A DNA stretch of 62,672 nt, counting the filler, from an uncultured bacterium (GTDB taxonomy: Bacteria > CAZDME01 > JAYEMH01), in the NCBI GenBank assembly GCA_964506785.1. It is 3 parts of 3 records of this genome, joined end to end, with 100 filler letters (N's around TTAATTAATTAA, not from the genome) between each part and the next. Parts side by side here need not be neighbours in the genome. Positions count along the whole stretch, not along the records: positions 21,187 to 41,977 come from CAZDME010000020.1; 2 more parts are not named here. One strand, 5' to 3'. The notes under the pieces are model-generated. The model was not told the origin of the DNA and ran no database searches. It worked only from the letters and a program-made list of their open reading frames with translations. The translations under genes and the position numbers were made by a program. Position 1 is the stretch's first letter. Each line of letters opens with the position of its first letter. This document shows positions 24,904 through 48,867 of the stretch, piece after piece.

Positions 24904-25101
24904 ATAAAAAAAGAATTTTTCGATGTAATTATCGTGACTCCGGGCATACTTGGTTGTGAGGCGGCTTTGGCGTGCGCCTGGTCAGGTTGCCGAAGCTTAT
25001 TGCTTACCCTTGATTTGGATATTAGTGCCTTAATGTTCTGTAATCCGGCTGTGAAATTAGGTTTAAAGCGGGGGAATAGGTGGGTGAGATTAAGGAGGTA
25101 A
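24904..25101 (+). pseudogene. mnmG: degenerate 5' remnant of mnmG (gidA)
   Basis: Hand translation from [53 protein letters not shown]. This matches the MnmG N-terminus (FDVIVVGGGHAGCEAALA...MSCNPAIGG) with a broken FAD loop and stops after 65 codons. Confidence 0.8.
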
Positions 25102-25607
25102 AGTTAGCCAAGCTGGTTATCGGTATTTTTGGGGTCGACTTTTCTCTGGTTAAGCCAGCCGAAGAGAAATTAGTTAAAAAATTCAAAAGGATAGATTACG
25201 AATCTCATATTCTTTCTTTTGATATCACTGATTATTATCAGGCGGAAATGGGAAGTAATCTTAAACGTAAATTTTATGCTTTTGAAAGGTTAATCTCTCC
25301 CAATTTGCTTCCCCGGATAAAAATTTTTACCAATCGGCTCGAGAAAAAACTGGCAAAAAGAAACGGTCAGCGCCAGTTCAATATAGACCCCGGATATCTA
25401 ACGCTCTCTAAGTTTGTTTTGGCGACAACTAAAGATTATAGTCATCGGTTATATCTAAATAAGGGAATTTATGCCGAGGTAACTTTAAAATTTAAAGATG
25501 AGACCTTCCAGCCTTGGGAATGGACCTATCCCGATTACCGCCAGAAGGAATATCTTGAAATTTTTAATAAAATCCGTAAAATATATAAGGAGCAGCTAAA
25601 GCGGTAA
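25080..25607 (+). CDS. DUF4416-family protein
   Basis: [35 protein letters not shown]. Confidence 0.85.
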
Positions 25608-31730: not shown

Positions 31731-32159
31731 ATGGATAACCAGGATTTAATTGAATTAATAAAGGATGCCTCAGAGCCTTTGATGCTCAGGGTTTCAGGGT
31801 CCAGTATGTTTCCGTTTCTGAAGGCAGGCGATAAAGTAAAGGTTAGAAAAGAATCTTTATCTAAAGTTCCCGCAGGAAGTTTGATTATCTACCAGGAAGG
31901 TGGCCGGTTGTTTTCTCACCGGTTAATACAAAAGATTAAAGGAAAGGAAAAATATTTTTTTCTGGAGAAGGGGGATAACACACTGAACTTTTCTCTGCGA
32001 GGTGAAGATGATTATCTGGGTAAGGTGGAAAAGATTGAATCGCAGGAAAAAATTAAAGATTTAGAAAGGTTCCCTCAAGTTTTTTTCAATAAAATTTTTC
32101 TCATCTGGGATCTTCTCCTTATAAATTTAATAAGGTTTAAACGGAATCTAGCTTTTTGA
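31731..32159 (+). CDS. S24/S26 peptidase-like protein
   Basis: VSGSSMFPFLKAGD, HRL, EKGDN. Confidence 0.75.
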   Translation: MDNQDLIELIKDASEPLMLRVSGSSMFPFLKAGDKVKVRKESLSKVPAGSLIIYQEGGRLFSHRLIQKIKGKEKYFFLEKGDNTLNFSLRGEDDYLGKVEKIESQEKIKDLERFPQVFFNKIFLIWDLLLINLIRFKRNLAF

Positions 32160-35418: not shown

Positions 35419-36225
35419 ATGCCTAAGGTAAGTGTTGTTATTCCCACCCATAATCGCGCTTCACTTTTAAAAGAGGCTATTAATTCAGTTTTTCAGCAGA
35501 CCTTTTCTGATTTTGAATTAATTATTGTTGATGACGGTTCAACTGATGAAACGGCTCAGTTAATCAAAGATTATCCCGCCATTCGCTATATCTATCAGAG
35601 AAATAGAGGGGTAAGTTTTGCCCGAAACCAAGGCATCAAACTGGCTCAAGGAGAATTCGTTTCTTTTCTTGATTCCGATGATTTATGGCTGGATAATAAA
35701 CTGAAAAGACAAGTAGATTTCTTTAGGCGCAATCCCAAAGCTTATATTGTCCAAACCGAAGAAATCTGGCTGAAGGATGGGCGGCCGCACAATCCGAAAA
35801 AACGGCATAAAAAATATTCCGGTTATATCTTAAAGGAATGTTTGCCCCTTTGTATTGTTAGCCCTTCGGCGGTGATGTTAAGGCGGGAAATCTTTGAAAA
35901 AGTGGGATTTTTTGATGAATCTTTGCCGGTTTGTGAAGACTATGATTTCTGGCTCAGGGTAGGGGTGTTTTATCCTATCCATTTAATTAATGAACCGCTG
36001 ATTATCAAAAGGGCTCGGTTTCCTGACCAGCTTTCACATCGCTTTTGGGGGATGGATCGTTTTCGGCTGAAAGCCATAAAGAAGCTTTTGAGAGAGGATA
36101 TTTCGCCTGAGATGAAAGAGGAGGCGATGAAAGTTTTTAAGGAGAAAAGAAAAATTCTTATTCGCGGCTGTCTTAAACGCCGGCGGTATCTTCCGGCCCT
36201 TTTTTATCGATTTTCTTTTCGCTGA
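35419..36225 (+). CDS. family 2 glycosyltransferase
   Basis: VSVVIPTHNR, VDDGSTD, FLDSDD, CEDYDFW. Confidence 0.92.
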   Translation: MPKVSVVIPTHNRASLLKEAINSVFQQTFSDFELIIVDDGSTDETAQLIKDYPAIRYIYQRNRGVSFARNQGIKLAQGEFVSFLDSDDLWLDNKLKRQVDFFRRNPKAYIVQTEEIWLKDGRPHNPKKRHKKYSGYILKECLPLCIVSPSAVMLRREIFEKVGFFDESLPVCEDYDFWLRVGVFYPIHLINEPLIIKRARFPDQLSHRFWGMDRFRLKAIKKLLREDISPEMKEEAMKVFKEKRKILIRGCLKRRRYLPALFYRFSFR

Positions 36226-36276
36226 ATAAATTTAGTAATCTGGCGGCATTTTTTTGCCCCTTTTAAAGGTCTTGCC

Positions 36277-37017
36277 TTGATAAAGTTAAAGCCGACATTT
36301 AATCTGGATAAAGTTTTTTTAAAGGTTTTTGGCTCTTCCCCCGACTTTATTGCCAAAAAGGTGGTAATTTCTCCTTTTATTAGTCCAGACCGGTTCAAAT
36401 TACATTTTAAAAAAGAGACCGTTAAAGAATTCTCCGGTGAACTTTATAGGGGGGTGACCGGCCGGTTCTATAACGGTTTGATAACCTTTATTAAAACGGG
36501 CCCGGGCAGAGTTCTTCTTAAGGATTGCCTTTTTTTTCTAAGTCATGCCGGGGTAAAAGAGATGTTATTTCTTGGCAGCGCCGGGGGACTCAGAGATTTA
36601 AAAATTGGAGATTTACTTTTATCTCTTCGAGCCACCCCTCATAAAGATTTTAGTAGCTATTCTCTGTCTGACGGGGACTACTCCCGGAAATTGAAAGATT
36701 ATTTTCTCTCTATCGGAAGAAAATCCCAGGTTTTCTTAAAAGAAGGCAAGGTTTTTACCTTATCTTCTCTTTTTGAACAAAACCAGGCTTTTCTTAGGCG
36801 GTTAGAAAAATCAGGATTTTCTGGTTTAGATTTGGAATTGTCCCATTTTTTCCAAGCTGCTACGATTAGTAAAATCAAAGCAGCCGGATTATGTGCCATC
36901 AGCGATCTTCCTTTAAAAAGACCTCTGGGTGAGGTTGATAAAAAGGGAAAAAAACTCCTTTTAAATTCCTTGAATTACGCTATAATCAATGTTCTAAACT
37001 TCCTTATCCGGGAATGA
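36277..37017 (+). CDS. nucleoside phosphorylase-fold (PNP/UDP) protein
   Basis: FLGSAGGL..LKIGDL, G.VFT..S, GLDLE, ISD motifs. Confidence 0.7.
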   Translation: MIKLKPTFNLDKVFLKVFGSSPDFIAKKVVISPFISPDRFKLHFKKETVKEFSGELYRGVTGRFYNGLITFIKTGPGRVLLKDCLFFLSHAGVKEMLFLGSAGGLRDLKIGDLLLSLRATPHKDFSSYSLSDGDYSRKLKDYFLSIGRKSQVFLKEGKVFTLSSLFEQNQAFLRRLEKSGFSGLDLELSHFFQAATISKIKAAGLCAISDLPLKRPLGEVDKKGKKLLLNSLNYAIINVLNFLIRE

Positions 37018-37964
37018 AGAATAAAGAATTGATTGAAATCTCTATAGGCGAAATTAATAATAAGGATAGAACATTTTCTCTGAGTTATCCTCTTTATCCT
37101 CTTCCCCTGGCTTCTTTTATAAAAGAGACCGGATTTATCTCCCCCTTAATCTTACGGAGGCAAAAAGGCAATAGGCGTTACCAGATTGTATCTGGTTTTA
37201 AAAGAGCGGCTATTCTCAAAAAGAGAAGCCAAGGGAAAATTCCCGCTTTTATTTTTTCCGAAAAGGAGATGCCGGATAAAAAAGCCATCCTTTTAAGTTT
37301 TTATGAGAATTTAAGCCATCGCCAGTTTAACGAGATAGAGAAAGCCCTGGCTATAGAGAAGTTATTTTCTTTAGGTAAAATTCCCGAGGAGCGGCTCATC
37401 AATTTTTTCCTTCCCTTGCTTGGTTTGCCGCGCAGCAAGAAATATTTAGATGGTTATTTTGCCTTAAGCGGCCTGGAAGAGCCAGTAAAAAAAGATTTAG
37501 TCCAGGGTATAATCGGTGTTGAAGTCGGAATTATACTTGCCGGTTTTAATCCTTTGGTAAGAAAACTTTTTTTGCGCTTGATAAAAAGGCTCAAGTTAAA
37601 TCAGAATAAAACCAAAGAAGTCATTACCTTGCTTGGGGAAATAAGCCGCCGGGAAGATAGGTTAATCCCTTCTTTACTTAGGGAAGAGCCGATAAGAAAG
37701 GTTCAAAATTTTTCCACCCTCAGGGATTATTTGTTAAACAGGCGTTATCCTGAATTTAAAGCCTATGAGAAGAACTTTTTGAAGTTAACTAAAAAACTCA
37801 AGCTTTCATCGGGAATAAAAATTGTGCCGCCGCCTTTTTTTGAAGACGACAAGTTGAAGATTAATTTAGAGGTAAAAGAGGAAAAGGAATTAGAGGAAAT
37901 TCTTTCCAGCCTTAATAAAGCTTTTAAAAGCAAGCGCTTTGGAGAAATTTTGTCTTTTTTATGA
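37014..37964 (+). CDS. ParB/Srx-domain protein
   Basis: GFISPLIL...YQIVSGFKR, ENLSHRQFNEIEKA; ATGA overlap with the upstream gene. Confidence 0.8.
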   Translation: MKNKELIEISIGEINNKDRTFSLSYPLYPLPLASFIKETGFISPLILRRQKGNRRYQIVSGFKRAAILKKRSQGKIPAFIFSEKEMPDKKAILLSFYENLSHRQFNEIEKALAIEKLFSLGKIPEERLINFFLPLLGLPRSKKYLDGYFALSGLEEPVKKDLVQGIIGVEVGIILAGFNPLVRKLFLRLIKRLKLNQNKTKEVITLLGEISRREDRLIPSLLREEPIRKVQNFSTLRDYLLNRRYPEFKAYEKNFLKLTKKLKLSSGIKIVPPPFFEDDKLKINLEVKEEKELEEILSSLNKAFKSKRFGEILSFL

Positions 37965-37990
37965 ATTAATATGAATTAATATGAATTAAT
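37961..37990. repeat. perfect 10-bp tandem repeat x3
   Basis: ATGAATTAAT x3 spanning the ParB-like stop codon. Confidence 0.9.
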
Positions 37991-37995
37991 AGGAA

Positions 37996-39090
37996 ATGAA
38001 AGACTTTATCCCTGAGGAGATTTTTATCGAGAGGGCGGTTTCAGGCTCAAATTTGGCCGGGGGTATAACCAAAAAATTCCCCCGCTCTAAGATTTTTGAA
38101 ATATCCGGTTTCAAAGATTACCTGAGGTTGTTTTCCCCTGCCCTCTCTATAAATAAGGCAAAAAAGAGGTTATATATTGCTAAACAGAAAGGCAGTTTTC
38201 TTAAGCCCTGCCCGGGCACTTCTGGTTATCTTTGCTGCAATTACTACATTCTGAATATCGGATTTGGCTGTTTCTACGATTGCAGCTATTGCTATCTCCA
38301 AAGTTATCTCAATTTTCCGGGGATAATTCTTTATGCTAACATAGAAGATTTTTTTCGCCAGATCGATATATCTCTCAAGAAAAATCCCCGGCTTTTTTAT
38401 CGGTTAGGGACGGGTGAATTCACTGATTCTTTAGCTTTTGAGAGAATTTTTTCATACGCCGGGGAACTTGTTCCCTTTTTTTCAAATAAGAGAATTATGC
38501 TTGAGTTGAAAACCAAAAGCGATTATGTGGAAAATTTGTTAAATCTTAATCATGGCGGAAGCACCGCTATTTCCTGGTCTCTCAATCCCCCGGGAATAAT
38601 AAGAAATGAGGAAAAAGGAAGCCTGTCTTTAAAAAAGCGCTTGAAGGCGGCTCGTGCCTGCGCCCGGGCCGGATATCCCATTGGCTTTCATTTCGACCCA
38701 ATTATAATTTATTCCGGCTGGCAGGAGGATTACCAGGGAACGATTCAAGAGATTTTTAAATATGTTTCTAAAGAGAACCTTTGCTGGATAAGCTTAGGCA
38801 CCTTGCGCTTTTCTCCCGGGCTCAAAGAGATTATTGCCCGGCGTTTTCCCAAGACGAAAATAATATATGAAGAGTTTATTACCGGACTCGATGGCAAAAT
38901 GCGCTATTTTAAGCCAAAGCGGGTCGAGATTTATCGAAAGATGCTCTCCTGGATAAAGGAATTTGCCCCGGAGGTTCCTGTTTATTTATGCATGGAAAGC
39001 CGGGATGTCTGGAGAAAGGTTTTTGGGTTTTCCCCGAGGGACCCGCGGGAAGTAGAAAAACTTTTTAAAATTAAAAAATGGTTAAATTAA
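37996..39090 (+). CDS. spore photoproduct lyase-like radical SAM protein
   Basis: GCFYDCSYCYLQ (CxxxCxxC), GTGEFTDSL, ELKTKS, WSLNP, GFHFDPII, DGKMRY, YLCME. Confidence 0.88.
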   Translation: MKDFIPEEIFIERAVSGSNLAGGITKKFPRSKIFEISGFKDYLRLFSPALSINKAKKRLYIAKQKGSFLKPCPGTSGYLCCNYYILNIGFGCFYDCSYCYLQSYLNFPGIILYANIEDFFRQIDISLKKNPRLFYRLGTGEFTDSLAFERIFSYAGELVPFFSNKRIMLELKTKSDYVENLLNLNHGGSTAISWSLNPPGIIRNEEKGSLSLKKRLKAARACARAGYPIGFHFDPIIIYSGWQEDYQGTIQEIFKYVSKENLCWISLGTLRFSPGLKEIIARRFPKTKIIYEEFITGLDGKMRYFKPKRVEIYRKMLSWIKEFAPEVPVYLCMESRDVWRKVFGFSPRDPREVEKLFKIKKWLN

Positions 39091-40082
39091 AAATCATTAC
39101 CATATCTCTTCTCTGTTTTTTTATTACCGGGTGCAGCACCGCTTATTATACCCGGCTTCCAGAGGAAGAAATTTTCCCCGAAGAGGCTCGCCGTCTTAAA
39201 TTGGCGGATTTAAAAAAATTCTACGCTTACGATAATCCTCAGGGAAAAATGGAGATTCATTTGCTTAAAGAGAGTTCTCGTTTTAGAATCTACCAGATTA
39301 AGTTTCCTTTTGTTTTAAGAAATTTTTTTCCGGATAAGGAGGTTGTTGAATTCGAATATTATCTCCCTAAAAGAGAAGGAAAGTTCCCGGCGATAGTGGT
39401 TCTTCCGCATTTGGCCGGGAAATCGGGCCTGGAAAGTTTTTTTGCCCGGGGATTGGTCAGAAAGGATTTTGCCGTTTTATCCATAGGAGAGCCATATTTT
39501 GCTAAAGACCGCCGGGAGGGGAGATGGTGGATGCATCAAATTCAAAGACCTGAAGATTTAGAAAAAATTAAAATGCTCTTTCGTCAGCTGGTGATTGATA
39601 CCCGCCGGGGGATAGATTTTTTAGAGGCCCAACCAGAGATTGACCCGGATAATATCGGGATATTAGGATTGAGTTTAGGCGGATGTCTGGCTGTGTTAGT
39701 AGCCGGGATTGAGGAGAGGGTAAAAGCAGATGCTTTTCTTCTTTCCGGAGGGGATTTAGTTACTTTAATTAAACAAAGTGATTATTCTGAAATTTTGCGC
39801 CGGCATATGGAGAAAGGGAATATTAGTTTTAAATTGCTGGGAGAAAATTGGCTGGAAATCGAACCTTTAGTTTTGGCTCCCTACCTTAACGGCCGGCCGA
39901 CGCTGATGATTAATGCCACTTTCGATCATTTAATGCCCTATACCTGCACAAAAAAACTCTGGCAGGCTTTAGGTAATCCCAGAATAATCTGGGTTCCCAG
40001 CGGGCATTATGGCTCAGCTATTTTTCTTGCTTATGCTCGAGGGGAAATAATTCGTTTTTTTGCTAAAGAATTATCTCGTTAG
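39078..40082 (+). CDS. alpha/beta hydrolase lipoprotein
   Basis: Lipobox FITGC; GLSLGG nucleophile elbow; Asp (FDH) and His (SGH). Confidence 0.85.
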   Translation: MVKLKIITISLLCFFITGCSTAYYTRLPEEEIFPEEARRLKLADLKKFYAYDNPQGKMEIHLLKESSRFRIYQIKFPFVLRNFFPDKEVVEFEYYLPKREGKFPAIVVLPHLAGKSGLESFFARGLVRKDFAVLSIGEPYFAKDRREGRWWMHQIQRPEDLEKIKMLFRQLVIDTRRGIDFLEAQPEIDPDNIGILGLSLGGCLAVLVAGIEERVKADAFLLSGGDLVTLIKQSDYSEILRRHMEKGNISFKLLGENWLEIEPLVLAPYLNGRPTLMINATFDHLMPYTCTKKLWQALGNPRIIWVPSGHYGSAIFLAYARGEIIRFFAKELSR

Positions 40083-40247: not shown

Positions 40248-40715
40248 ATGGAATATACTTTTTTACCCATTCCTAAAAATTTCTGTTTGGTAAGCGGCAA
40301 AAGTGAAGGTGCCACTGAGCTTAATGCTTTCGATAATGCCTTGATTGCCGCCGGGATTGGCGACGCCAATTTGATTAAGGTAACCAGTATTATTCCTACC
40401 GGCTGTAAGTTTCAAAAAAAACCTAAACAATTTTTAAAGGGAGAATTTATCCCGGTTGTCTACGCAGAAAAGACTAGTTTGCTAAAGGGAGCCCGTATTG
40501 CCGCCGCCCTGGGAGTGGGAATTGCCTCCGATGGATTTGGTGTGGTTGTTGAGGCCAAAGGGGCCTCTTTCCGCCAGGTAGAAAAGGATATTGAGAAAAA
40601 AATTAAAGCGGCTTTTAAGATTCGCCGCTTGAGGTTAAAGGAAATAAGATTTACCGCTCAGGAACATCAGGTAAAAAAATGCGGCTGTGTTTTAGCCGCT
40701 TGTCTTTATTGGTAA
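40248..40715 (+). CDS. pdaD: pyruvoyl-dependent arginine decarboxylase
   Basis: LNAFDNAL..AGIGDANLIKVTSIIP (Thr-Ser cleavage site); first gene of the polyamine operon. Confidence 0.88.
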   Translation: MEYTFLPIPKNFCLVSGKSEGATELNAFDNALIAAGIGDANLIKVTSIIPTGCKFQKKPKQFLKGEFIPVVYAEKTSLLKGARIAAALGVGIASDGFGVVVEAKGASFRQVEKDIEKKIKAAFKIRRLRLKEIRFTAQEHQVKKCGCVLAACLYW

Positions 40716-40759
40716 GATAGAAGACAGGAGTCAGAAAACAGAGGATAGATAACAGAAAA
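40716..40759. repeat. 7-mer array (CAGAAGA family)
   Basis: atagaa gacagga gtcagaa aacagag gatagat aacagaa. Confidence 0.7.
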
Positions 40760-41608
40760 ATGGCGAAAAAGGATAGAAGGAAAATTAAATATTTTACTGA
40801 AGAGCAGGTGCCTGAGCTTTTTTTTCGGGTAGGGGTTAAACGAAAGCTTTGCTCTCTCAAAACCGCCTACCAGAAAGCAGAGATTTTTGAAAGCTATCCT
40901 TTGGGAAAACTTTTTTCTCTGGACGATATTGTTATGCTTAGCGAAAAAGATGAGGCTTTCTATCACGAGATGTTAGTTCATCCGGCCATGTTTCTTCATC
41001 GTTCGCCTAAAGATGTTCTCATTATTGGCGGCGGCGATGGAGGAACCTTACGTGAGGTTCTGCGGCATCGTTCGGTAAAGGAAGCCATAATGGTTGAAAT
41101 AGACGGCGGGGTAGTTGAAATATGCAAAAAATATCTGCCGGGAATTAATAGGGGAGCTTTTACTGATAAAAGGGCAATTCTGGAAATTAACGACGGGGCA
41201 AAGTTTTTAAAGGAAACCAAATCTAAGTTTGACATCATCTTGGTTGATTCCACTGACCCGATTGGCCCGGGCAAGGTTCTTTTTAGCCGTCTTTTTTACC
41301 AAGCGGCCCACCGGGCTTTGAATAAAGACGGGCTTTTTGCCTGTCAGTCCGGTTCGCCTTTCTATCAAGGAAAGGTTTTAAGACAAAATTACTTACACCT
41401 TAAAAAAATTTTCCCCTGGGTCAAAGTCTATCTTGGTTTTGTACCTTCTTATCCAAGCGGACTCTGGAGTTTTTGTCTGGCCGGCCGCACTCCTTACGAC
41501 ATTAACCGGCCGGTTAAACTCACCTTTAATACTAAATTTTACAATTCCCGGATTCATCAAGCCGCTTTTAAACTTCCTCAATTCGTCGAGAATTTACTAT
41601 GCCGGTAA
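40760..41608 (+). CDS. speE: polyamine aminopropyltransferase (spermidine synthase)
   Basis: YHEMLVHP, IIGGGDGG, VEID, DSTDP. Confidence 0.95.
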   Translation: MAKKDRRKIKYFTEEQVPELFFRVGVKRKLCSLKTAYQKAEIFESYPLGKLFSLDDIVMLSEKDEAFYHEMLVHPAMFLHRSPKDVLIIGGGDGGTLREVLRHRSVKEAIMVEIDGGVVEICKKYLPGINRGAFTDKRAILEINDGAKFLKETKSKFDIILVDSTDPIGPGKVLFSRLFYQAAHRALNKDGLFACQSGSPFYQGKVLRQNYLHLKKIFPWVKVYLGFVPSYPSGLWSFCLAGRTPYDINRPVKLTFNTKFYNSRIHQAAFKLPQFVENLLCR

Positions 41609-41977
41609 GCCGCGTTAGAAAACTTACACCGGGTATTAAAACCCGCCTTCGTAAACTAAAGAGCAGCTCTAAGGTAAGGCTCGAGACATTTCCTAACGGG
41701 GTCAAGTTTTTAGAAAGTAAAAATTTCCCTCAGGCAAAGCTCGCCATTTTAGGAATTCCTTTAGAAGCAACAGAGACCTTTCGCGGCGGAGTAAAAAAAG
41801 CTCCAGATGAAATTAGAAAAGCCTCTCATTCTCTCGAAAGTTATAGCCGTTTTTTAAATTATGACCTTAAAGATTTAAATTTCTCTGATTTAGGCAATTT
41901 ATCCTTAAACGGGAAATTGATAGAGACTTAAATTTAATTGAGAAGAAAACTTCCTCTTTCCTTAAGGAGAAAAAAAA
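41599..41977 (+). CDS. speB: agmatinase, 5' part (frameshift near 41910, cut by contig end)
   Basis: ILGIPLEATETFRGG..KAPDEIRKAS, DLGNL; an alternative frame continues EIDRDLNLIEKKTSSFLKEKK. Confidence 0.8.
41608..41702. repeat. palindromic element inserted in frame in the speB N-terminus
   Basis: CCGCGTTAGAAAA ... TTTCCTAACGGGGT; reads SRVRK...FPNGV. Confidence 0.7.
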
Positions 41978-42231: not shown

Positions 42232-44610
42232 CTAAAATTTCACTTCATGTTCAAGGCCAACAAAATCCTCATCTTCTTCAATGCGCAATTTGAATTTTTC
42301 TTTCCCTTTTATCCTATATTCCAATTCCATTTCAGGACCTGGTTCTTCAGCCAAATCTTCTTCTGGCTTACCTACCGTAGGAGTCCTCAAGCTCACGGCA
42401 AAACCTCCGGATACCTCCTTAGTCAAACTTAGCTCATCTTTCTCTTCTTTTTGATCGATTTCCCATCCTTTCCAAACCATCTGGCTCTCATCCAGAAGAT
42501 ACTCAATGTCTCTAAACATCTGCTTGCCTTTTCCGCTAAAGTCTATCGGCCCTCGGCAAATAAGCCTCGTTCCGTCCATTACCACCGGTGATTCCTTCAG
42601 GATAAAGCATGGATTGATTCCTTCAATTTGGAACTTGGCATATTCGATGTTTTTCTTCCCGATTTTAGAATCCTTTAACTCGACTATCCCTTGAACGGCT
42701 ATTTCCGGCCATTTCCCTTTACATTCTATTTTCCCAGAGGCTCTACCGAAATTATCCTCTGCAGAGAAACTGGGAGAAAACCCAAGAAGGGGAACTATAT
42801 CAGCGTTTTCTAAAGTTAAACTTAAATTAATCACCTGCGGGTTGAAACCAATCTCCCCTTCTAAAAAATAAGCCTCAAGCCACCTCATCTTTTCGATAAT
42901 TATTTTTTTTGACCCTATCTTTAATAAACCCCTCATGGGTAAATATTCTTTCCCTTGAATGACTACCGGCTCAACCAATATTTTACCGGTAAACCCCGCA
43001 GGCAGCATCTCACCTGTCAAATTCAACTGGGCTTGAGAAGAAACCTTTTTCCCCTCTAAATTAGCTTTAAGTTTCAGAATATCTGCTTTTTTCTCCCCTT
43101 TAAGGCGGCAAATCAATTTTCCTGAAGATAAAACTGACTCTTCAAGAACTAACCGCTCCTTATCTCCTCTTAAATTAATCTGGCCGTTTAGCCTGCTCGA
43201 CGAATTATCCGCCAGGGGCAAATCTTTTAAAAAAAGTTGAAGCCGCAATAAATAAGGATGAGAAGAAAGGGAGCCGGTTAGGTATGCTTTTTCGCCAAGA
43301 GAGACATTTTCTATTCTGACTGAATCTGCATCCTTTTTAATTTTCCATTTAATAATATTTTTCTTTCCAAAGCGTTCCCAAACCAAATTTCCTTGATAAT
43401 TAACCTCAGGGGAACCGATTAAGCCGGTAACCCTGCCCTCCGCTTTAAATACCCCGGGAAAATCCGGCCACTTCTTTAAGTAAAAAGATAAATTTTTGCT
43501 TCCTAAAGGCGGCAGGCAAAAATGAAATCCATAGGTTAAATCATCCTTTACCTCCGCCTGCCAGACTAATTTTCCCAGCTCAGCCACAAATATTTCTCCA
43601 TTTTTACAGAACAGGTTTTGGTCGACACGGCCTAATTGACAGCTAATCTTTTCTAAAGAAATTTTCTCCTCCCCTTGAACAAAAATAAGGTTTCCTAAAA
43701 CCCTGGGTTCAAATAAAGGCCCGCTGAAGTTTATCTCCCCAAAACACTCGGCAAAAGGCAGCTTAATCCCTTTTATTTTCATCTGACTGACCAGATTCGG
43801 TTTAGAAAAAATTTCGGTAACTTTTATTTTCCCGGCAATTTGTCCTTTTAGAATTTTTGCCTGGGCTGGCGAAAAATTAATAAATCCATCGCCAAAATAA
43901 AAGTTGGATTTGATCTGCGGAAATTGGAAATTTTTAGACCCGACGTTATTCAATACGATTTCGCCCAGAACTTTTATTTTCCCCGGCTCTCCAGTTAAAC
44001 GTCCAGAAATCCTGCCCCGGCCGGAAAGTTTCAAAGGTTCCAATCTTGGCCAAAATCCGGCTAAATCCTTTATTCCAAAATTGTCTGTCTCGACATCTAA
44101 ATCAATCGTTGGGCCGGCGACAAAATTTCTCAGCCAACCCTTTAGAATCACTTTAGTTTCTCCCAGAGGAAATATCAGGCGGTCAACGTAAAAGTCGTGG
44201 TTGGTTACCACGATTTTCCCTTTGATATTTTTCACCGGCTTGGCTAATGAACGTAATTTCATATTCCCTCCCTGAAAAGATATTTTGCGGAAGGCCTGTT
44301 GATAATCTTTCTTACCTCTAATTAAGTTAAAAAAATTCAGGTGGGTTACCAGCCGGGCCGCCCGAAAACGCTCCAGGGGATATTCTTCTCCAAGAGTCCG
44401 AACCTCCAGGTCAAAAAGATATATTCCTCCTAAAAAACTTACTTTCACTTCTCTTACGGTTATCTCCCTCCCCAGTTTATGGGAAAGCATATCTATCAAG
44501 CTGGCTTTGTAATCTCTTACGAATTTGTTTAAGACAATAAATATGGAAACTCTCCCCGCTAAAAAAAGAATTAAAAGAGAGATAACGACTATCTTTATCT
44601 TTTTTTTCAT
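42232..44610 (-). CDS. AsmA/TamB-like periplasm-spanning beta-rich protein
   Basis: N-terminal membrane anchor, then LSHKLGREITV and repeated amphipathic beta strands (G.I.G.L.G patterns). Confidence 0.6.
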   Translation of the reverse strand: MKKKIKIVVISLLILFLAGRVSIFIVLNKFVRDYKASLIDMLSHKLGREITVREVKVSFLGGIYLFDLEVRTLGEEYPLERFRAARLVTHLNFFNLIRGKKDYQQAFRKISFQGGNMKLRSLAKPVKNIKGKIVVTNHDFYVDRLIFPLGETKVILKGWLRNFVAGPTIDLDVETDNFGIKDLAGFWPRLEPLKLSGRGRISGRLTGEPGKIKVLGEIVLNNVGSKNFQFPQIKSNFYFGDGFINFSPAQAKILKGQIAGKIKVTEIFSKPNLVSQMKIKGIKLPFAECFGEINFSGPLFEPRVLGNLIFVQGEEKISLEKISCQLGRVDQNLFCKNGEIFVAELGKLVWQAEVKDDLTYGFHFCLPPLGSKNLSFYLKKWPDFPGVFKAEGRVTGLIGSPEVNYQGNLVWERFGKKNIIKWKIKKDADSVRIENVSLGEKAYLTGSLSSHPYLLRLQLFLKDLPLADNSSSRLNGQINLRGDKERLVLEESVLSSGKLICRLKGEKKADILKLKANLEGKKVSSQAQLNLTGEMLPAGFTGKILVEPVVIQGKEYLPMRGLLKIGSKKIIIEKMRWLEAYFLEGEIGFNPQVINLSLTLENADIVPLLGFSPSFSAEDNFGRASGKIECKGKWPEIAVQGIVELKDSKIGKKNIEYAKFQIEGINPCFILKESPVVMDGTRLICRGPIDFSGKGKQMFRDIEYLLDESQMVWKGWEIDQKEEKDELSLTKEVSGGFAVSLRTPTVGKPEEDLAEEPGPEMELEYRIKGKEKFKLRIEEDEDFVGLEHEVKF

Positions 44611-44667: not shown

Positions 44668-47115
44668 TTATTTGTTATCTGCCTTTTCAAATACTAATTT
44701 ATCCTTTTGGGATTTTACTACAACTAGAGAACCAATCGGAAATTTGCCTTTTAGCATATCCATAGACAGGGGGTCTTCGATAAACCTCTGAATAGCTCGG
44801 CGTAAGGGGCGGGCTCCAAAGCTGGGGTCGTATCCTTTATCAATCAAAAACTCTTTGGCTTCGTTGGTGAGTTTTATCTTTAATTCTTTCTCGGTAAGGC
44901 GTTTCTTTACCTTTTCCACCATTAAATCAACAATTTGCATAAGGTCTTCTTTAGAAAGAGACGAAAAAACAACCATTTCATCAATGCGGTTAAGAAATTC
45001 GGGCTGAAAGGTCTTTCTAAGTTCATCCATCAATTTGTCTTTCATCTCTTTGTAAGATTCAGCCCGATCAGGCGCAGTAAAACCCAAAGAAGTTTTTTTA
45101 TCAATCAAACGCGCCCCGACATTTGAAGTCATTATTAAAACTACATTTCGGAAATCTACGGCCCGGCCCAGACTATCGGTAAGACGCCCGTCTTCAATAA
45201 CCTGAAGAAGAATGTTAAAGACATCGGGATGAGCCTTTTCTATTTCATCTAAAAGGACAACAGAATAAGGCCTCCTTCTGACTTTTTCGGTTAACTGCCC
45301 GCCTTCTTCATAGCCGACATAACCCGGAGGCGCTCCCACTAAACGAGAAACCGCAAATTTTTCCATATATTCGGACATATCAATTTGAATCATCGCCTCT
45401 TCATTGCCAAAAAGAAATTCAGCTAAAGCTCGAGCCAGCTCGGTTTTTCCCACTCCGGTAGGCCCCAAAAAGATAAAAGAGCCAATCGGCCGTTTGGGGT
45501 CTTTTATCCCCGCCCGTGAACGCCGCACCGCCCGGGTAACCACTGATAAAGCCTCATCCTGTCCGACAACTCTTTTATGAAGCTCTTCTTCCATCCTGAG
45601 AAGCCGGCCGGTCTCTTCCTCTTCCAACTGGGTAACCGGAATACCCGTCCATTTGGAAACAATCGAAGCAATATCTTCCCCGGTAACAAGAACCTTTTCT
45701 TCAGCCGTTTCATCTTTCTTCCACTGCTTCTTAGTCGTCTCCAGTTCTACCTTGAGTTGATGGTGCGTATCCCGAAGGCCGGCGGCGCGTTCGAATTCCT
45801 GCATTTTGACTGCCGCTTCTTTCTCTTTGTTCACTTTAGAAATTTCCTTTTCCAATTCCTGCAGTTTAGGCGGCGGGGTGCCTGCTTTTAAACGAGCTCG
45901 AGAACCAGCTTCGTCAATCAAATCAATCGCCTTATCAGGTAAAAATCTTCCGGAGATATATCGGTCAGAAAGCTTGGCCGCCATCTCCAAAGCTTCATCA
46001 GTAATTTTTACCCGGTGGTGAGTCTCATAACGGCCCCTTAATCCTTTAAGAATCTCGATGGTTTCATTAACCGTTGGCGGTTCGATAAAAATGGGCTGAA
46101 ATCTCCTCTCTAAAGCAGCGTCTTTTTCAACATGTTTGCGATATTCGTCTAAAGTAGTCGCTCCAATACATTGAATTTCTCCGCGAGAAAGAGCCGGTTT
46201 CAAAATGTTGGACGCATCAATTGCTCCTTCAGCCGCCCCGGCCCCCACCAGATTATGCAATTCATCGATAAAAACAATTACGTCTTTAGAACGGCGGATT
46301 TCATTCATTACCGCTTTAATTCTCTCTTCAAACTGACCGCGGTACTTAGTCCCGGCGACCATTAAAGCTAAATCCAGAGTTACTAATCGGCGGTTTTTCA
46401 ATACATGAGAAATTTCGTCGGCAACGATTCTCTGCGCTAAACCTTCAACAATGGCCGTCTTGCCGACACCAGCTTCTCCAATGAGAACGGGATTATTCTT
46501 TGTCCGGCGGCTCAAAACCTGGATGACTCTTTCAATTTCATCTTGGCGGCCGATAACCGGGTCAAGTTTATCTTGACGGGCTAACTCGGTTAAATCCCGG
46601 CTAAAAGCGTCTAAAGCCGGGCTTTTAGATTTTTTGGCCGTCTCTCCGGCTATCCCTAAGCCTGGGGGAGATTCGGCTGCTCCTCCTAAAAGATTACTGA
46701 TTTCTATTTTTACCTTTTCAAAGGTAAGTCCCATTTTTTCTAAAACTCTAGCGGCCACACCTTCACCTTCCCGGACCAAACCAAGCAGGATATGTTCCGT
46801 GCCAATATAGGTATGAGCCATCGCTTGAGCGCTCTCAATAGCCAATTCCAAAACCTTCTTAGCCCGGGGGGTAAAAGGTATCTCTCCTAAGGTTAAAGTT
46901 GGCGGCCCGCCTTGGACCATCTTTTCGACTTCTAATCGGAGGCTGTCTAAATCCAAACTTAAATTCTGCAGGACAATGGCGGCTACACCCTCTCCTTCGC
47001 GAACTAAACCTAAAAGGAGATGTTCGGTGCCGATATAATTATGCCCTAATTTGCCCGCTTCTTCACGAGCAAGTTTTATTACCCTCTTTGCTCTTTCGGT
47101 AAAATGTTCAAACAT
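44668..47115 (-). CDS. clpC: ATP-dependent Clp protease ATPase ClpC
   Basis: Two Clp N repeats (YIGTEH), [11 protein letters not shown] coiled coil, [15 protein letters not shown]. Confidence 0.96.
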
Positions 47116-47151
47116 AAGTCCTTACCTCCCTCAATAGCTCTATTTGGCTTT

Positions 47152-47281
47152 TAGCTCATCGCTCATAGTTCATTGCTCATAGTTAAAATATTTGTTTTTT
47201 ACCATGAGCCATCAGCTATGAGCAATGAGCCACTTTTACATTACACATATCACATTACACATTACACAATTACAATGAGCT
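47152..47281. repeat. composite 7-mer element: inverted GCTCATA/TATGAGC arms plus ATTACAC array
   Basis: tagctca tcgctca tagttca ttgctca / ccatga gccatca gctatga gcaatga, then ttacatt acacat... Related to 51853-51935 and 54615-54691. Confidence 0.85.
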
Positions 47282-47282
47282 G

Positions 47283-48347
47283 TCAGCCATAAGGATGAGC
47301 TAATTTTTCCCTAATTATCGCTGCCCTTTTTTCATCTCTTTCCATCGGGGTTAATGCTTTTTTTCCCATCTTCTGCAGGTGCGCCGGCTGGGTAATAATA
47401 AATAATTCGTTTATTTTTTTTCGATCTACTTCCTTTTCGCTTATAATCCCCAAAGCCAGACCAAGTCGGATAGTTGATAATAAACCGATTGTCTCCTGGC
47501 TGCTGATAAGGCGGACATTTTTTAAAATCCCTAAAGCCCGAAAGACTTTATCGGCGGTTTCTGACTTTGATTTATCCAAAACAATTTTTTTTGCGTTCTG
47601 TTCATATTCGATAATTTGTTTAATTACCCGGTCAATATTTTCAATAAGTTCTTCCTCAGTTCTTCCCAGACAAATCTGATTGGAAATTTGGAAGTAATTA
47701 CCGGTTGCCTGCGTTCCTTCTCCGTAAAGCCCGCGCACCGCTAATCCTAATTTGGCTACCGCTTGCAGCAGGCGATTAATATCCCGGGAAAGGGCTAAAG
47801 CCGGCAGGTGCATTAAGACCGAAGCCCTTAGCCCGGTCCCGGTATTAGTTGGACAAGCAGTTAAATATCCCCATTTTGAAGAAAAAGCGTAATTTAGATT
47901 TTTTCCTAACTCATCGTCAACTTTAGTGGAAATTTCCCAGGCTTGATGAAATTCTAATCCGGAAAAAATAATCTGAAGGCGCAGATGATCTTCCTCATTA
48001 ACCATCACCCCGATTATTTCTTTTTCTCCGATAATCACCGCTCTGTCTTTATCCCCCCGGGTTTGCTCCTGGCTGATCAGGTGCCGTTCGGCTAAAAATT
48101 GCCTGTCCAAAAGAGGGATTTGGTCTAAACGGATGAACAGGCTTTTTTTCAGACTCGGGCTTTTGGCGGCTGCTTCCTGGACTAAAGAAAGCACCTTTTC
48201 CCTATCATCCTTTTTTGCCCACTGGGGAAAAGGAATTTTAGTGATATTCCGCGCCAGTCTTATACGGCTGCTAATAACCACCTCGCCATAAGAACCTTCG
48301 CCCTGAAGCCATTGTCCGGATTGATGGATTAAATCTTCGAATTTCAT
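47283..48347 (-). CDS. mcsB: protein arginine kinase
   Basis: SSRIRLARN, NEEDHLR, GYLTACPTNTGTGLRAS, VRGLYGEG. Confidence 0.95.
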   Translation of the reverse strand: MKFEDLIHQSGQWLQGEGSYGEVVISSRIRLARNITKIPFPQWAKKDDREKVLSLVQEAAAKSPSLKKSLFIRLDQIPLLDRQFLAERHLISQEQTRGDKDRAVIIGEKEIIGVMVNEEDHLRLQIIFSGLEFHQAWEISTKVDDELGKNLNYAFSSKWGYLTACPTNTGTGLRASVLMHLPALALSRDINRLLQAVAKLGLAVRGLYGEGTQATGNYFQISNQICLGRTEEELIENIDRVIKQIIEYEQNAKKIVLDKSKSETADKVFRALGILKNVRLISSQETIGLLSTIRLGLALGIISEKEVDRKKINELFIITQPAHLQKMGKKALTPMERDEKRAAIIREKLAHPYG

Positions 48348-48351
48348 TTTT

Positions 48352-48867
48352 TTACGAATTAGTTTCCTTTTTTTCTAATGCTCGGATTTTATCCCTGATT
48401 TTGGCTGCTTTTTCAAATTCCTCTCGTTCTACCGCTTGAACTAATTCAGCTTTAAGTTTCTCTATTCCAGAAAGAGGTTCTATCTTCCGGCGGCTGATTT
48501 TCCCTTTGCCTTTTTTAGGGAATTTTCCCCGGTGCTGTATGCTTCCATGAATTTTCCTGAGAAGAGGAACCAATGTTTTAGCAAAACTTTGATAACATTC
48601 ACTGCAGCCCAAACGGCCAATCTTTGCAAATTGGGCATGGCTTAAGCCGCAATTCTTGCACTTAATTTCCGCCTTTTCAACCTGAGGGGGACTAATGCCT
48701 AAATTGATTAGTCCAACGAGAAGATCGGCAATGGAAAAATGAGGCTGCATGCTTAAACCCTTCTCCTGGGCGCAATCCTCACAAAGGTGCAGCTCCTTAA
48801 TCTGGTTATTTACCACTTCGGTAAAATGGACGGTGGCTTCTTTTTCCCCGCAAATCTGGCATAACAT
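48352..48867 (-). CDS. mcsA: McsB activator McsA
   Basis: Four CxxC motifs, GRLGCSECY, C-terminal UVR domain. Confidence 0.93.
   Translation of the reverse strand: MLCQICGEKEATVHFTEVVNNQIKELHLCEDCAQEKGLSMQPHFSIADLLVGLINLGISPPQVEKAEIKCKNCGLSHAQFAKIGRLGCSECYQSFAKTLVPLLRKIHGSIQHRGKFPKKGKGKISRRKIEPLSGIEKLKAELVQAVEREEFEKAAKIRDKIRALEKKETNS

Follow-up and report, generated by a model that had tools for sequence, protein, structure and literature searches.

What is a radical S-adenosylmethionine (SAM) enzyme resembling spore photoproduct lyase (SPL) doing next to a ParB-like protein and a glycosyltransferase in a diderm bacterium with no sporulation genes in view? The question is raised by five genes in a 62 672-nucleotide stretch of DNA from an uncultured bacterium (assembly GCA_964506785.1), here called the window, which consists of three contigs joined by N spacers and carries the genes on the middle one (21187–41977). 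Comparison with related loci showed that the enzyme, the ParB paralogue and one subfamily of family 2 glycosyltransferases (GT2) form a conserved module, joined in one branch by a protein of the nucleoside phosphorylase/nucleosidase (NP-I) fold. The explanation that we favour, with a probability of about 0.4, is a chromosomal ParB-assisted system for DNA base modification. An initial annotation, made from sequence alone, had listed the same five genes, and its coordinates and (through Pfam matches) its domain calls were confirmed as follows.

35419–36225, plus strand: glycosyltransferase of a dedicated GT2 subfamily (GT-A fold), 268 aa (PF00535, E 4e-40); core partner
36277–37017, plus strand: NP-I fold protein, 246 aa with a TTG start (PF01048, PNP_UDP_1, E 4e-15); lineage-restricted accessory
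37014–37964, plus strand: orphan ParB paralogue, 316 aa (ParB_N, E 4e-7), with an NTP-binding domain, a degenerate helix-turn-helix (HTH), a helical docking domain (about residues 190–250) and a C-terminal alpha/beta region
37996–39090, plus strand: SPL-fold radical SAM enzyme with a remodelled pocket, 364 aa (Pfam SPL, E 1e-34); core
39078–40082, plus strand: alpha/beta-hydrolase lipoprotein, 334 aa (alpha/beta-hydrolase Pfam families); adjacent, outside the conserved module

The five open reading frames (ORFs) are co-directional and overlap at 37014–37017 and 39078–39090. So far the ‘operon’ of the initial annotation is real, but it is not a separate one: the genes lie inside a longer plus-strand run in which hisF ends 6 nt upstream, LonC overlaps hisF and polyamine genes follow downstream, and a scan for promoters and terminators did not yield a boundary that could be used (28 against 20.8 expected; 14 against 17.9 expected). 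Adjacency in this one genome therefore proves nothing.

A conserved four-gene unit

Relatives of the radical SAM enzyme gave 6896 matches among 8000 scored candidates, the best 120 of which were listed. The window protein was aligned with 98 relatives and the GTDB genomes were then scanned; the loci compared here are the best 80 of 588 confirmed, among at least 600 matching stretches, and represent the close family only. It should be noted that the scan patterns included GTGE, FHFDP and CME, which makes the invariance of these motifs in the 80 loci partly circular, and residue counts are for that reason quoted from 135 protein-search matches (119 near and 16 long relatives, with P0287 left out). 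A ParB-like gene or its helical domain accompanies the enzyme in 52 of the 80 loci (34 have the full gene, 15 only its C-terminal half and three an N-terminal helical-domain fusion), and the same GT2 subfamily, at 42–68% identity, is present in 39. One or other of these domains occurs in 60 loci, and in 53 of the 65 that have at least 2.5 kb of upstream sequence. Separate ParB-like genes nearly always end within 300 nt of the enzyme (46/49) and GT2 genes are mostly co-directional with it within 1.5 kb (36/39). The carriers are labelled Thermodesulfobacteriota, Binatota, Acidobacteriota, Omnitrophota, Aerophobota, KSB1, WOR-1 and others, so the conservation across phyla to which the initial annotation had looked was found, with the reservation that the counts are not independent events because kin share gene order.

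The remaining candidates fared differently. The NP-I subfamily lies directly upstream in four of the 80 loci (L001, L009, L025 and L076) and is fused to the enzyme in two of 17 long relatives; the phosphorylase-fold protein is a lineage-restricted component. The hydrolase lipoprotein (lipobox-like ITGC at residues 16–19, GLSLG at 197; 49 bits with the RcgR model against a cut-off of 182) had been counted in the operon as well, and was rejected as a member of the module: it is adjacent and full-length in a single locus, L001, the nearest relative (enzyme 68% identical), and elsewhere gave two weak partial matches, both at a distance of over 5 kb and on the opposite strand. A suggested co-occurrence with DUF4416 was not borne out by blastp (1e-5) at any of the 80 loci; the copy in the window, at 25080–25607, is about 10 kb upstream of the GT2 gene. 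The conserved unit is four genes, those for the enzyme, ParB, GT2 and NP-I, with the hydrolase excluded.

All three partners are also found fused to the enzyme. A search with the single radical SAM protein as query in the range 638–2000 aa returned 17 relatives of more than 637 aa (an earlier search with alignment A1, covering 789–2250 aa only, found none). GT2 is the fused partner in ten of these, NP-I in two (P0271 and P0275) and a ParB-like protein in two, and the others carry a second radical SAM domain, MnmE or an unassigned N-terminus, once each. Six further proteins carry the helical domain as a fusion. The GT2 fusions are distinct, being no more than 82% identical to each other, and fall in at least three places on our tree (both trees used in this work are quick trees), with one further GT2 pair elsewhere; the window enzyme belongs to a starred clade of that tree together with NP-I and helical-domain fusions. 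Single fusion cases may be artefacts because most fusions were seen on one to five contigs. The window genome keeps as four genes what its relatives fuse in varied combinations, and we regard it as very likely that the four act together.

Some individual loci and proteins deserve a record of their own. In P0277 the second radical SAM domain is attached through a helical-domain-like linker (one case), and in P0281 the partner is the tRNA-modification GTPase MnmE (one case, on one short contig). A Fusobacterium protein of 623 aa (L082:4098–6898) has an N-terminus that aligns by eye with NP-I and a distant SPL-like domain, and lies next to an SDR that follows it; Pfam gave no confirmation of the NP-I-like N-termini of this protein or of P0287, and the Fusobacterium linker scored 11.7 bits against the helical domain, the best of 1000 shuffles reaching 11.2. 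An SDR also lies 3′ of the enzyme in one Thermodesulfobacteriota clade. In a Sumerlaeota locus a different PNP_UDP_1 gene, with an MTAN-type N-terminal Glu, is directly downstream of the enzyme (L041:11028–11810). A cultured carrier, Desulforhopalus sp. IMCC35007 (L048), has GT2 together with the enzyme.

The enzyme and its partners

Although its fold is that of SPL throughout, the enzyme is not an SplB. The model (pLDDT 90) matches the Geobacillus structure 4fhc over the whole fold, including the N-terminal domain, with Z 36.0 and an rmsd of 2.3 Å over 324 residues (next match Z 14.6), and it scores 120.1 bits with the Pfam SPL superfamily model PF20903, for which the gathering threshold is 27. 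With the SplB model TIGR04070 it reaches 123.1 bits against a cut-off of 400, and with TIGR03886 (57 against 438 bits) and TIGR04470 (27 against 410 bits) it is likewise far under the cut-off. Identity to SplB is about 26% and a branch of 5.5 substitutions divides the family from SplB and TIGR03886. The radical SAM motif CxxxCxYC (C92/C96/C99), the SAM and cluster contacts of SPL, its residues D143, K174 and S195, and the phosphate-binding Arg273 and Lys309 (R271 and K301) are all kept. Among the dihydrothymine contacts Tyr339 is retained as Y330, whereas Arg193 is replaced by S193 (Ser, Ala or Thr in 135/135 relatives) and Glu268 by S266 (134/135). The beta-hairpin tip with Arg304/Tyr305 is deleted, leaving a six-residue gap over WGRYGI, and the second active-site tyrosine (Y98 in Geobacillus, Y99 in Bacillus), which is Tyr100 in the window copy, is Tyr in only 44 of 135 relatives, a variability that fits loss of radical recycling. 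The enzyme differs further from SplB in an insertion of six residues that includes CC, in a CME motif and an extension at the C-terminus, and in the company of ParB, GT2 and NP-I partners with no splA or spore genes; in the 135 relatives C81, C332, C80, R136, E141, E170, K172, H232 and D234 are new near-invariant residues. The loss of Arg193/Glu268, the deleted hairpin tip, the variable Tyr98 position and these new residues set the family apart from SplB, and with the pocket remodelled in this way the base need not be thymine. Other SPL superfamily members of non-sporulating bacteria (TIGR03886, TIGR04470 and the Fusobacterium/vent Campylobacterota type) lack the CPG..CC and GTGE of the window enzyme; an unexplained homologue in vent bacteria, the Nautilia copy, is mentioned in an excerpt of PMC2628731.

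The initial annotation had argued that the hydrogen-donor cysteine of Bacillus SplB is missing from the GTGEFTDS segment and that extra CPG..CC cysteines precede the CxxxCxxC motif. Both observations stand, Glu141 being aligned with Bacillus Cys141 (the SPL change C140 to E) and CPG..CC being present, but the argument drawn from the first fails because clostridial SPL (the Cys74–77 type) uses an upstream Cys and Cys72 holds that position. Residues were mapped through PMC3467042, PDB alignments and Bacillus and Clostridium SplB sequences: Cys72 aligns with Ser76 of SPL, Cys76 of the 4rh0 mutant and clostridial Cys75 (by sequence alignment only, and beside an insertion). Passages of PMC3467042 state that the Ser76 and clostridial Cys positions are equivalent and place them 4.2 Å from the lesion, and the portion of PMC5368176 consulted gives clostridial C74 as the hydrogen donor. 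A candidate hydrogen donor is thus present after all. The extra cysteines are well kept in the relatives (C72 in 133, C80 in 121, C81 in 135 and C332 in 134 of 135). In two GT2 fusions without the helical domain, P0276 and P0284, C72 is Phe and E141 is Gln; since these positions lie opposite one another in SPL, the chemistry of the two fusions may be a variant one.

The partner, to judge from its sequence, is not a ParABS ParB. It matches Noc/ParB in a fold search (E 1e-8, residues 247–316 being barely covered) and in a profile search (E 9e-26), the likeness spanning the NTP domain and HTH region (residues 1–210). It shares with the ParB/Spo0J and Noc CTP clamps the NTP-domain and HTH fold and the GxxR and ENxxR motifs (G61 and R64 100%, N99 95% and R103 96% in 121 relatives); it differs from them in its weak recognition helix, in a conserved RRYP/FE docking surface, in having no adjacent parA and in occurring in forms without the NTP domain or fused to the enzyme. 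As the initial annotation had noted, no parA is adjacent: family searches of 62 window ORFs found neither ParA nor sporulation families, and the 80 loci contain one ParA-like motif (in L035, which has no ParB-like gene). A scan with a parS pattern gave no match in the window. That annotation had also proposed an NTP-binding partner for the enzyme. The partnership is supported by modelling (below), while NTP binding is not a universal requirement, because the NTP domain is absent from 15 of 49 separate partners and from three helical-domain fusions. According to sections of PMC12704722, sequence does not predict the NTP bound by this fold and 17 of 28 tested proteins bound none. The partner family comprises 2982 clusters at 50% identity; the Atlas labels its C-terminal half only as hypothetical, and that half had no match in the plasmid collection.

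A complex of the enzyme with partner residues 148–316 was modelled, as the initial annotation had recommended, and scored 0.79, against 0.00 for the best of three controls. This mark was reached by 116 of 157 solved pairs and 2 of 215 mismatched pairs, a calibration that holds only roughly because our own alignments and riding ligands went into the job. The runs share at least 94% of contacts, with a partner pLDDT of at least 85, and PDB searches found no solved complex of this kind. In the model enzyme residues 288–308 (the shortened hairpin) face partner residues 209–213, 244–251 and 274–279, an interface that holds the four most conserved residues of partner 148–316 (P246, E277, R244 and F276) and has a mean conservation of 0.62 against 0.40 in the rest of the C-terminal half. 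On the enzyme side the interface includes the conserved E293 (132/135) and R303 (133/135), and EI.R and RRYP persist as motifs in fused forms. Loci without an adjacent partner have E293 as well, which fits either a partner encoded elsewhere or a structural role. The model supports binding of the ParB C-terminal half to the beta-hairpin of the enzyme, the element that SPL uses to engage DNA. Between the two genes in the window, three tandem copies of a 10-base AT-rich unit (37960–37989) run from the stop codon of ParB across the gap that precedes the start of the radical SAM gene; in L001 the corresponding gap is 5 nt only.

In the GT2 protein D85-S-D-D88 and C172-E-D-Y175, whose DxD and ED we take to be catalytic, are invariant in 38 of 38 aligned full-length copies and many subfamily-specific residues are kept; its nearest solved relatives are generic GT2 enzymes. 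In the NP-I protein D185, E187 and D210 are invariant in 7/7. All seven have Phe (F98) where DeoD has the Arg of RVGS, its phosphate-binding residue, and because of this replacement a hydrolase or a binder seems more likely than a phosphorylase.

Proposed base modification and its alternatives

Of known systems the closest parallel is the phage thymine dioxygenase (5mYOX/TET-JBP) system described in PMC13229309. ParB paralogues without parA serve the cognate base-acting enzymes there, activating them on dsDNA without need of their NTP residues (no stable complex was trapped), and glycosyltransferases are the commonest neighbours of the dioxygenases (31%). A cognate ParB, a nearby glycosyltransferase and dispensable NTP residues are features of the present loci too. 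The differences are that the phage enzyme is Fe/2-oxoglutarate- and oxygen-dependent, whereas the core enzyme here is not a dioxygenase of this type but a radical SAM protein encoded on chromosomes among housekeeping genes, and that the phage ParB has no DNA-binding domain, whereas the window ParB keeps a degenerate HTH. By this analogy the system probably works like ParB-assisted base hypermodification, with a chemistry that we infer. DNA is favoured as substrate because of the ancestry of the partner, its docking on the hairpin with which SPL engages DNA and the retained phosphate contacts, and modification is favoured over repair because a glycosyltransferase has repeatedly been fused to the enzyme. 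A DNA substrate and a glycosylated base as product are offered tentatively.

On this reading a ParB dimer would hold or slide the enzyme on dsDNA, replacing the lost hairpin tip, with NTP switching optional. The 5′-deoxyadenosyl radical would abstract hydrogen from a flipped-out base, C81, C332, C80 and C72 could pass the radical on or hold a second metal centre by which it is oxidized, and the outcome might be a hydroxyl or similar handle, made without oxygen, to which GT2 would add a sugar. The NP-I-fold protein might clear 5′-deoxyadenosine or salvage the modified nucleoside. In its most far-reaching form, which is unlikely, the idea becomes a widespread, oxygen-independent equivalent of TET/JBP enzymes acting with glycosyltransferases: a radical SAM enzyme loaded by ParB, with a second metal centre held by its cysteines, would oxidize a DNA base and GT2 would glycosylate it. 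If true, lineages including sulfate reducers, Acidobacteriota, Binatota and Omnitrophota would carry an unrecognized sugar-modified base resembling base J in their chromosomes. Bacteria without spores have thousands of proteins that go by the names ‘spore photoproduct lyase’ or ‘DNA photolyase’ and had been unexplained, and one large SPL-like branch now has defined partners, a predicted interface and testable residues, with a job proposed for the large orphan ParB family. If the product is a modified DNA base, ParB-activated modification would no longer be confined to the dioxygenases of phages but would include anaerobic radical chemistry acting on the chromosomes of bacteria. The three-to-four-component system is real, widespread and apparently undescribed: full-text literature open without subscription, supplements apart, yielded no description of the module, the one paper combining the terms ParB, photoproduct lyase and glycosyltransferase being, from the part consulted, a Clostridium genome report, and the word ‘lyase’ is absent from the main text of the ParB-fold survey PMC12704722.

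Several points weigh against base modification. Nothing ties the GT2 protein to DNA: it scores 16.1 bits (E 0.011) with the TAGT model PF20691, against a gathering threshold of 27.5, and among the phage glycosyltransferases listed (12 of 42 records) none is more than 34% identical to it. Conservation of the HTH recognition helix is poor (top residue 21–54%), and the 15 partners without an NTP domain lack the HTH as well. Neither GT2 nor a ParB partner was found in 20 of the 80 loci, mostly Desulfobacterales, 12 of which have at least 2.5 kb upstream; in one locus of that clade (L008) a ParB-like gene lies 7 kb from the enzyme, and such separation may therefore explain some of these cases. The loci sit among housekeeping genes, PADLOC models matched none of the five proteins, two of the 135 relatives, both of them GT2 fusions, have Phe in place of the putative donor Cys72, the window copy itself keeps Tyr100, the NP-I protein, without the DeoD-type Arg, may be inactive, and the modified base, substrate and activity of this system are ones that we infer. 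Searches of plasmid and phage collections returned distant SplB-type matches and generic glycosyltransferases only.

The alternative that survives best is biosynthesis of a small molecule or envelope component, in which a free nucleotide or NDP-sugar occupies the former dinucleotide pocket, or an adenosyl group is added, NP-I removes the base, GT2 transfers the product and the ParB derivative serves as a scaffold or as an enzyme like SerK or Srx. Hopanoid synthesis by HpnH/HpnG/HpnI follows a parallel logic. Fusion of both GT2 and NP-I to the enzyme suits this scheme, as do the change of two bulky base contacts to Ser/Ala, the new invariant residues R136, E170, K172, H232 and D234 and the dispensable DNA-binding half of the partner, and the ParB fold also serves SerK, Srx and PadC in the part of PMC12704722 consulted. 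The partner is, however, closest to DNA-binding Noc/ParB over residues 1–210, and the 80 loci show no other gene for biosynthesis or export that is shared between lineages, the remaining neighbours being clade-specific. We consider it a serious possibility, if an improbable one; an undescribed pathway of radical SAM enzyme and glycosyltransferase would still result if the product is not a DNA base.

If the enzyme repaired some other DNA lesion instead of spore photoproduct, for example a cross-link or an adduct that is bulky or glycated, the ParB clamp would scan, the enzyme would cleave the adduct with Cys72 as hydrogen donor, and GT2 and NP-I would tag or salvage the released product. The full SPL fold, a Cys at the proven donor position and the retained R271, K301 and Y330 would all be expected, and other SplB-like radical SAM genes lie in SOS neighbourhoods according to extracts of PMC3765255. 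A glycosyltransferase fused several times is hard to fit with repair, though, and no repair gene recurs as a direct neighbour across the loci. LexA boxes (five motifs summed) occur upstream of one of 77 loci, against about 0.9 expected, and may not be the boxes of these phyla. This explanation is distinctly unlikely. Less probable again is modification of tRNA or rRNA by the enzyme and GT2 with the ParB derivative as adaptor, which could draw on the MnmE fusion (1/17 long relatives) and on the laterally open barrel, suited to macromolecules in the excerpt of PMC3467042 consulted; the fusion is a single sequence on one short contig, possibly a read-through, and dsDNA is what the descent from ParB suggests. 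That the enzyme is simply a spore photoproduct lyase acting alone, with neighbours there by chance, would be consistent with the Pfam score, the common fold, the clostridial-type Cys and its naming in databases as, for instance, ‘spore photoproduct lyase’, but is very improbable given the TIGR04070 score, the replaced and deleted contacts and the long branch from SplB, and is largely refuted already by the conserved partners and fusions.

Other features of the window and related loci

The window encodes Lnt, a LolCDE-like pair and two beta-barrel proteins, the latter from tandem outer-membrane genes at 783–2539, which indicate a diderm host, in line with the initial annotation. A 792-aa protein encoded at 42232–44610 (minus strand) has no Pfam or NCBIfam match. 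Downstream of the five genes (40248–41977) are arginine decarboxylase and spermidine synthase, together with an agmatinase ORF that breaks off after 110 aa, close to the end of the contig, and is probably broken or mis-assembled. A lone S24/S26-type peptidase-like gene lies at 31731–32159, and McsA-McsB-ClpC, here in a diderm, are encoded on the minus strand at 44668–48867. Among the related loci, those of Binatia type (L002, L007, L010, L029, L031 and L073) have a CoxG/START-fold gene directly upstream of GT2, and often glutamate racemase and secA 3′ of the enzyme.

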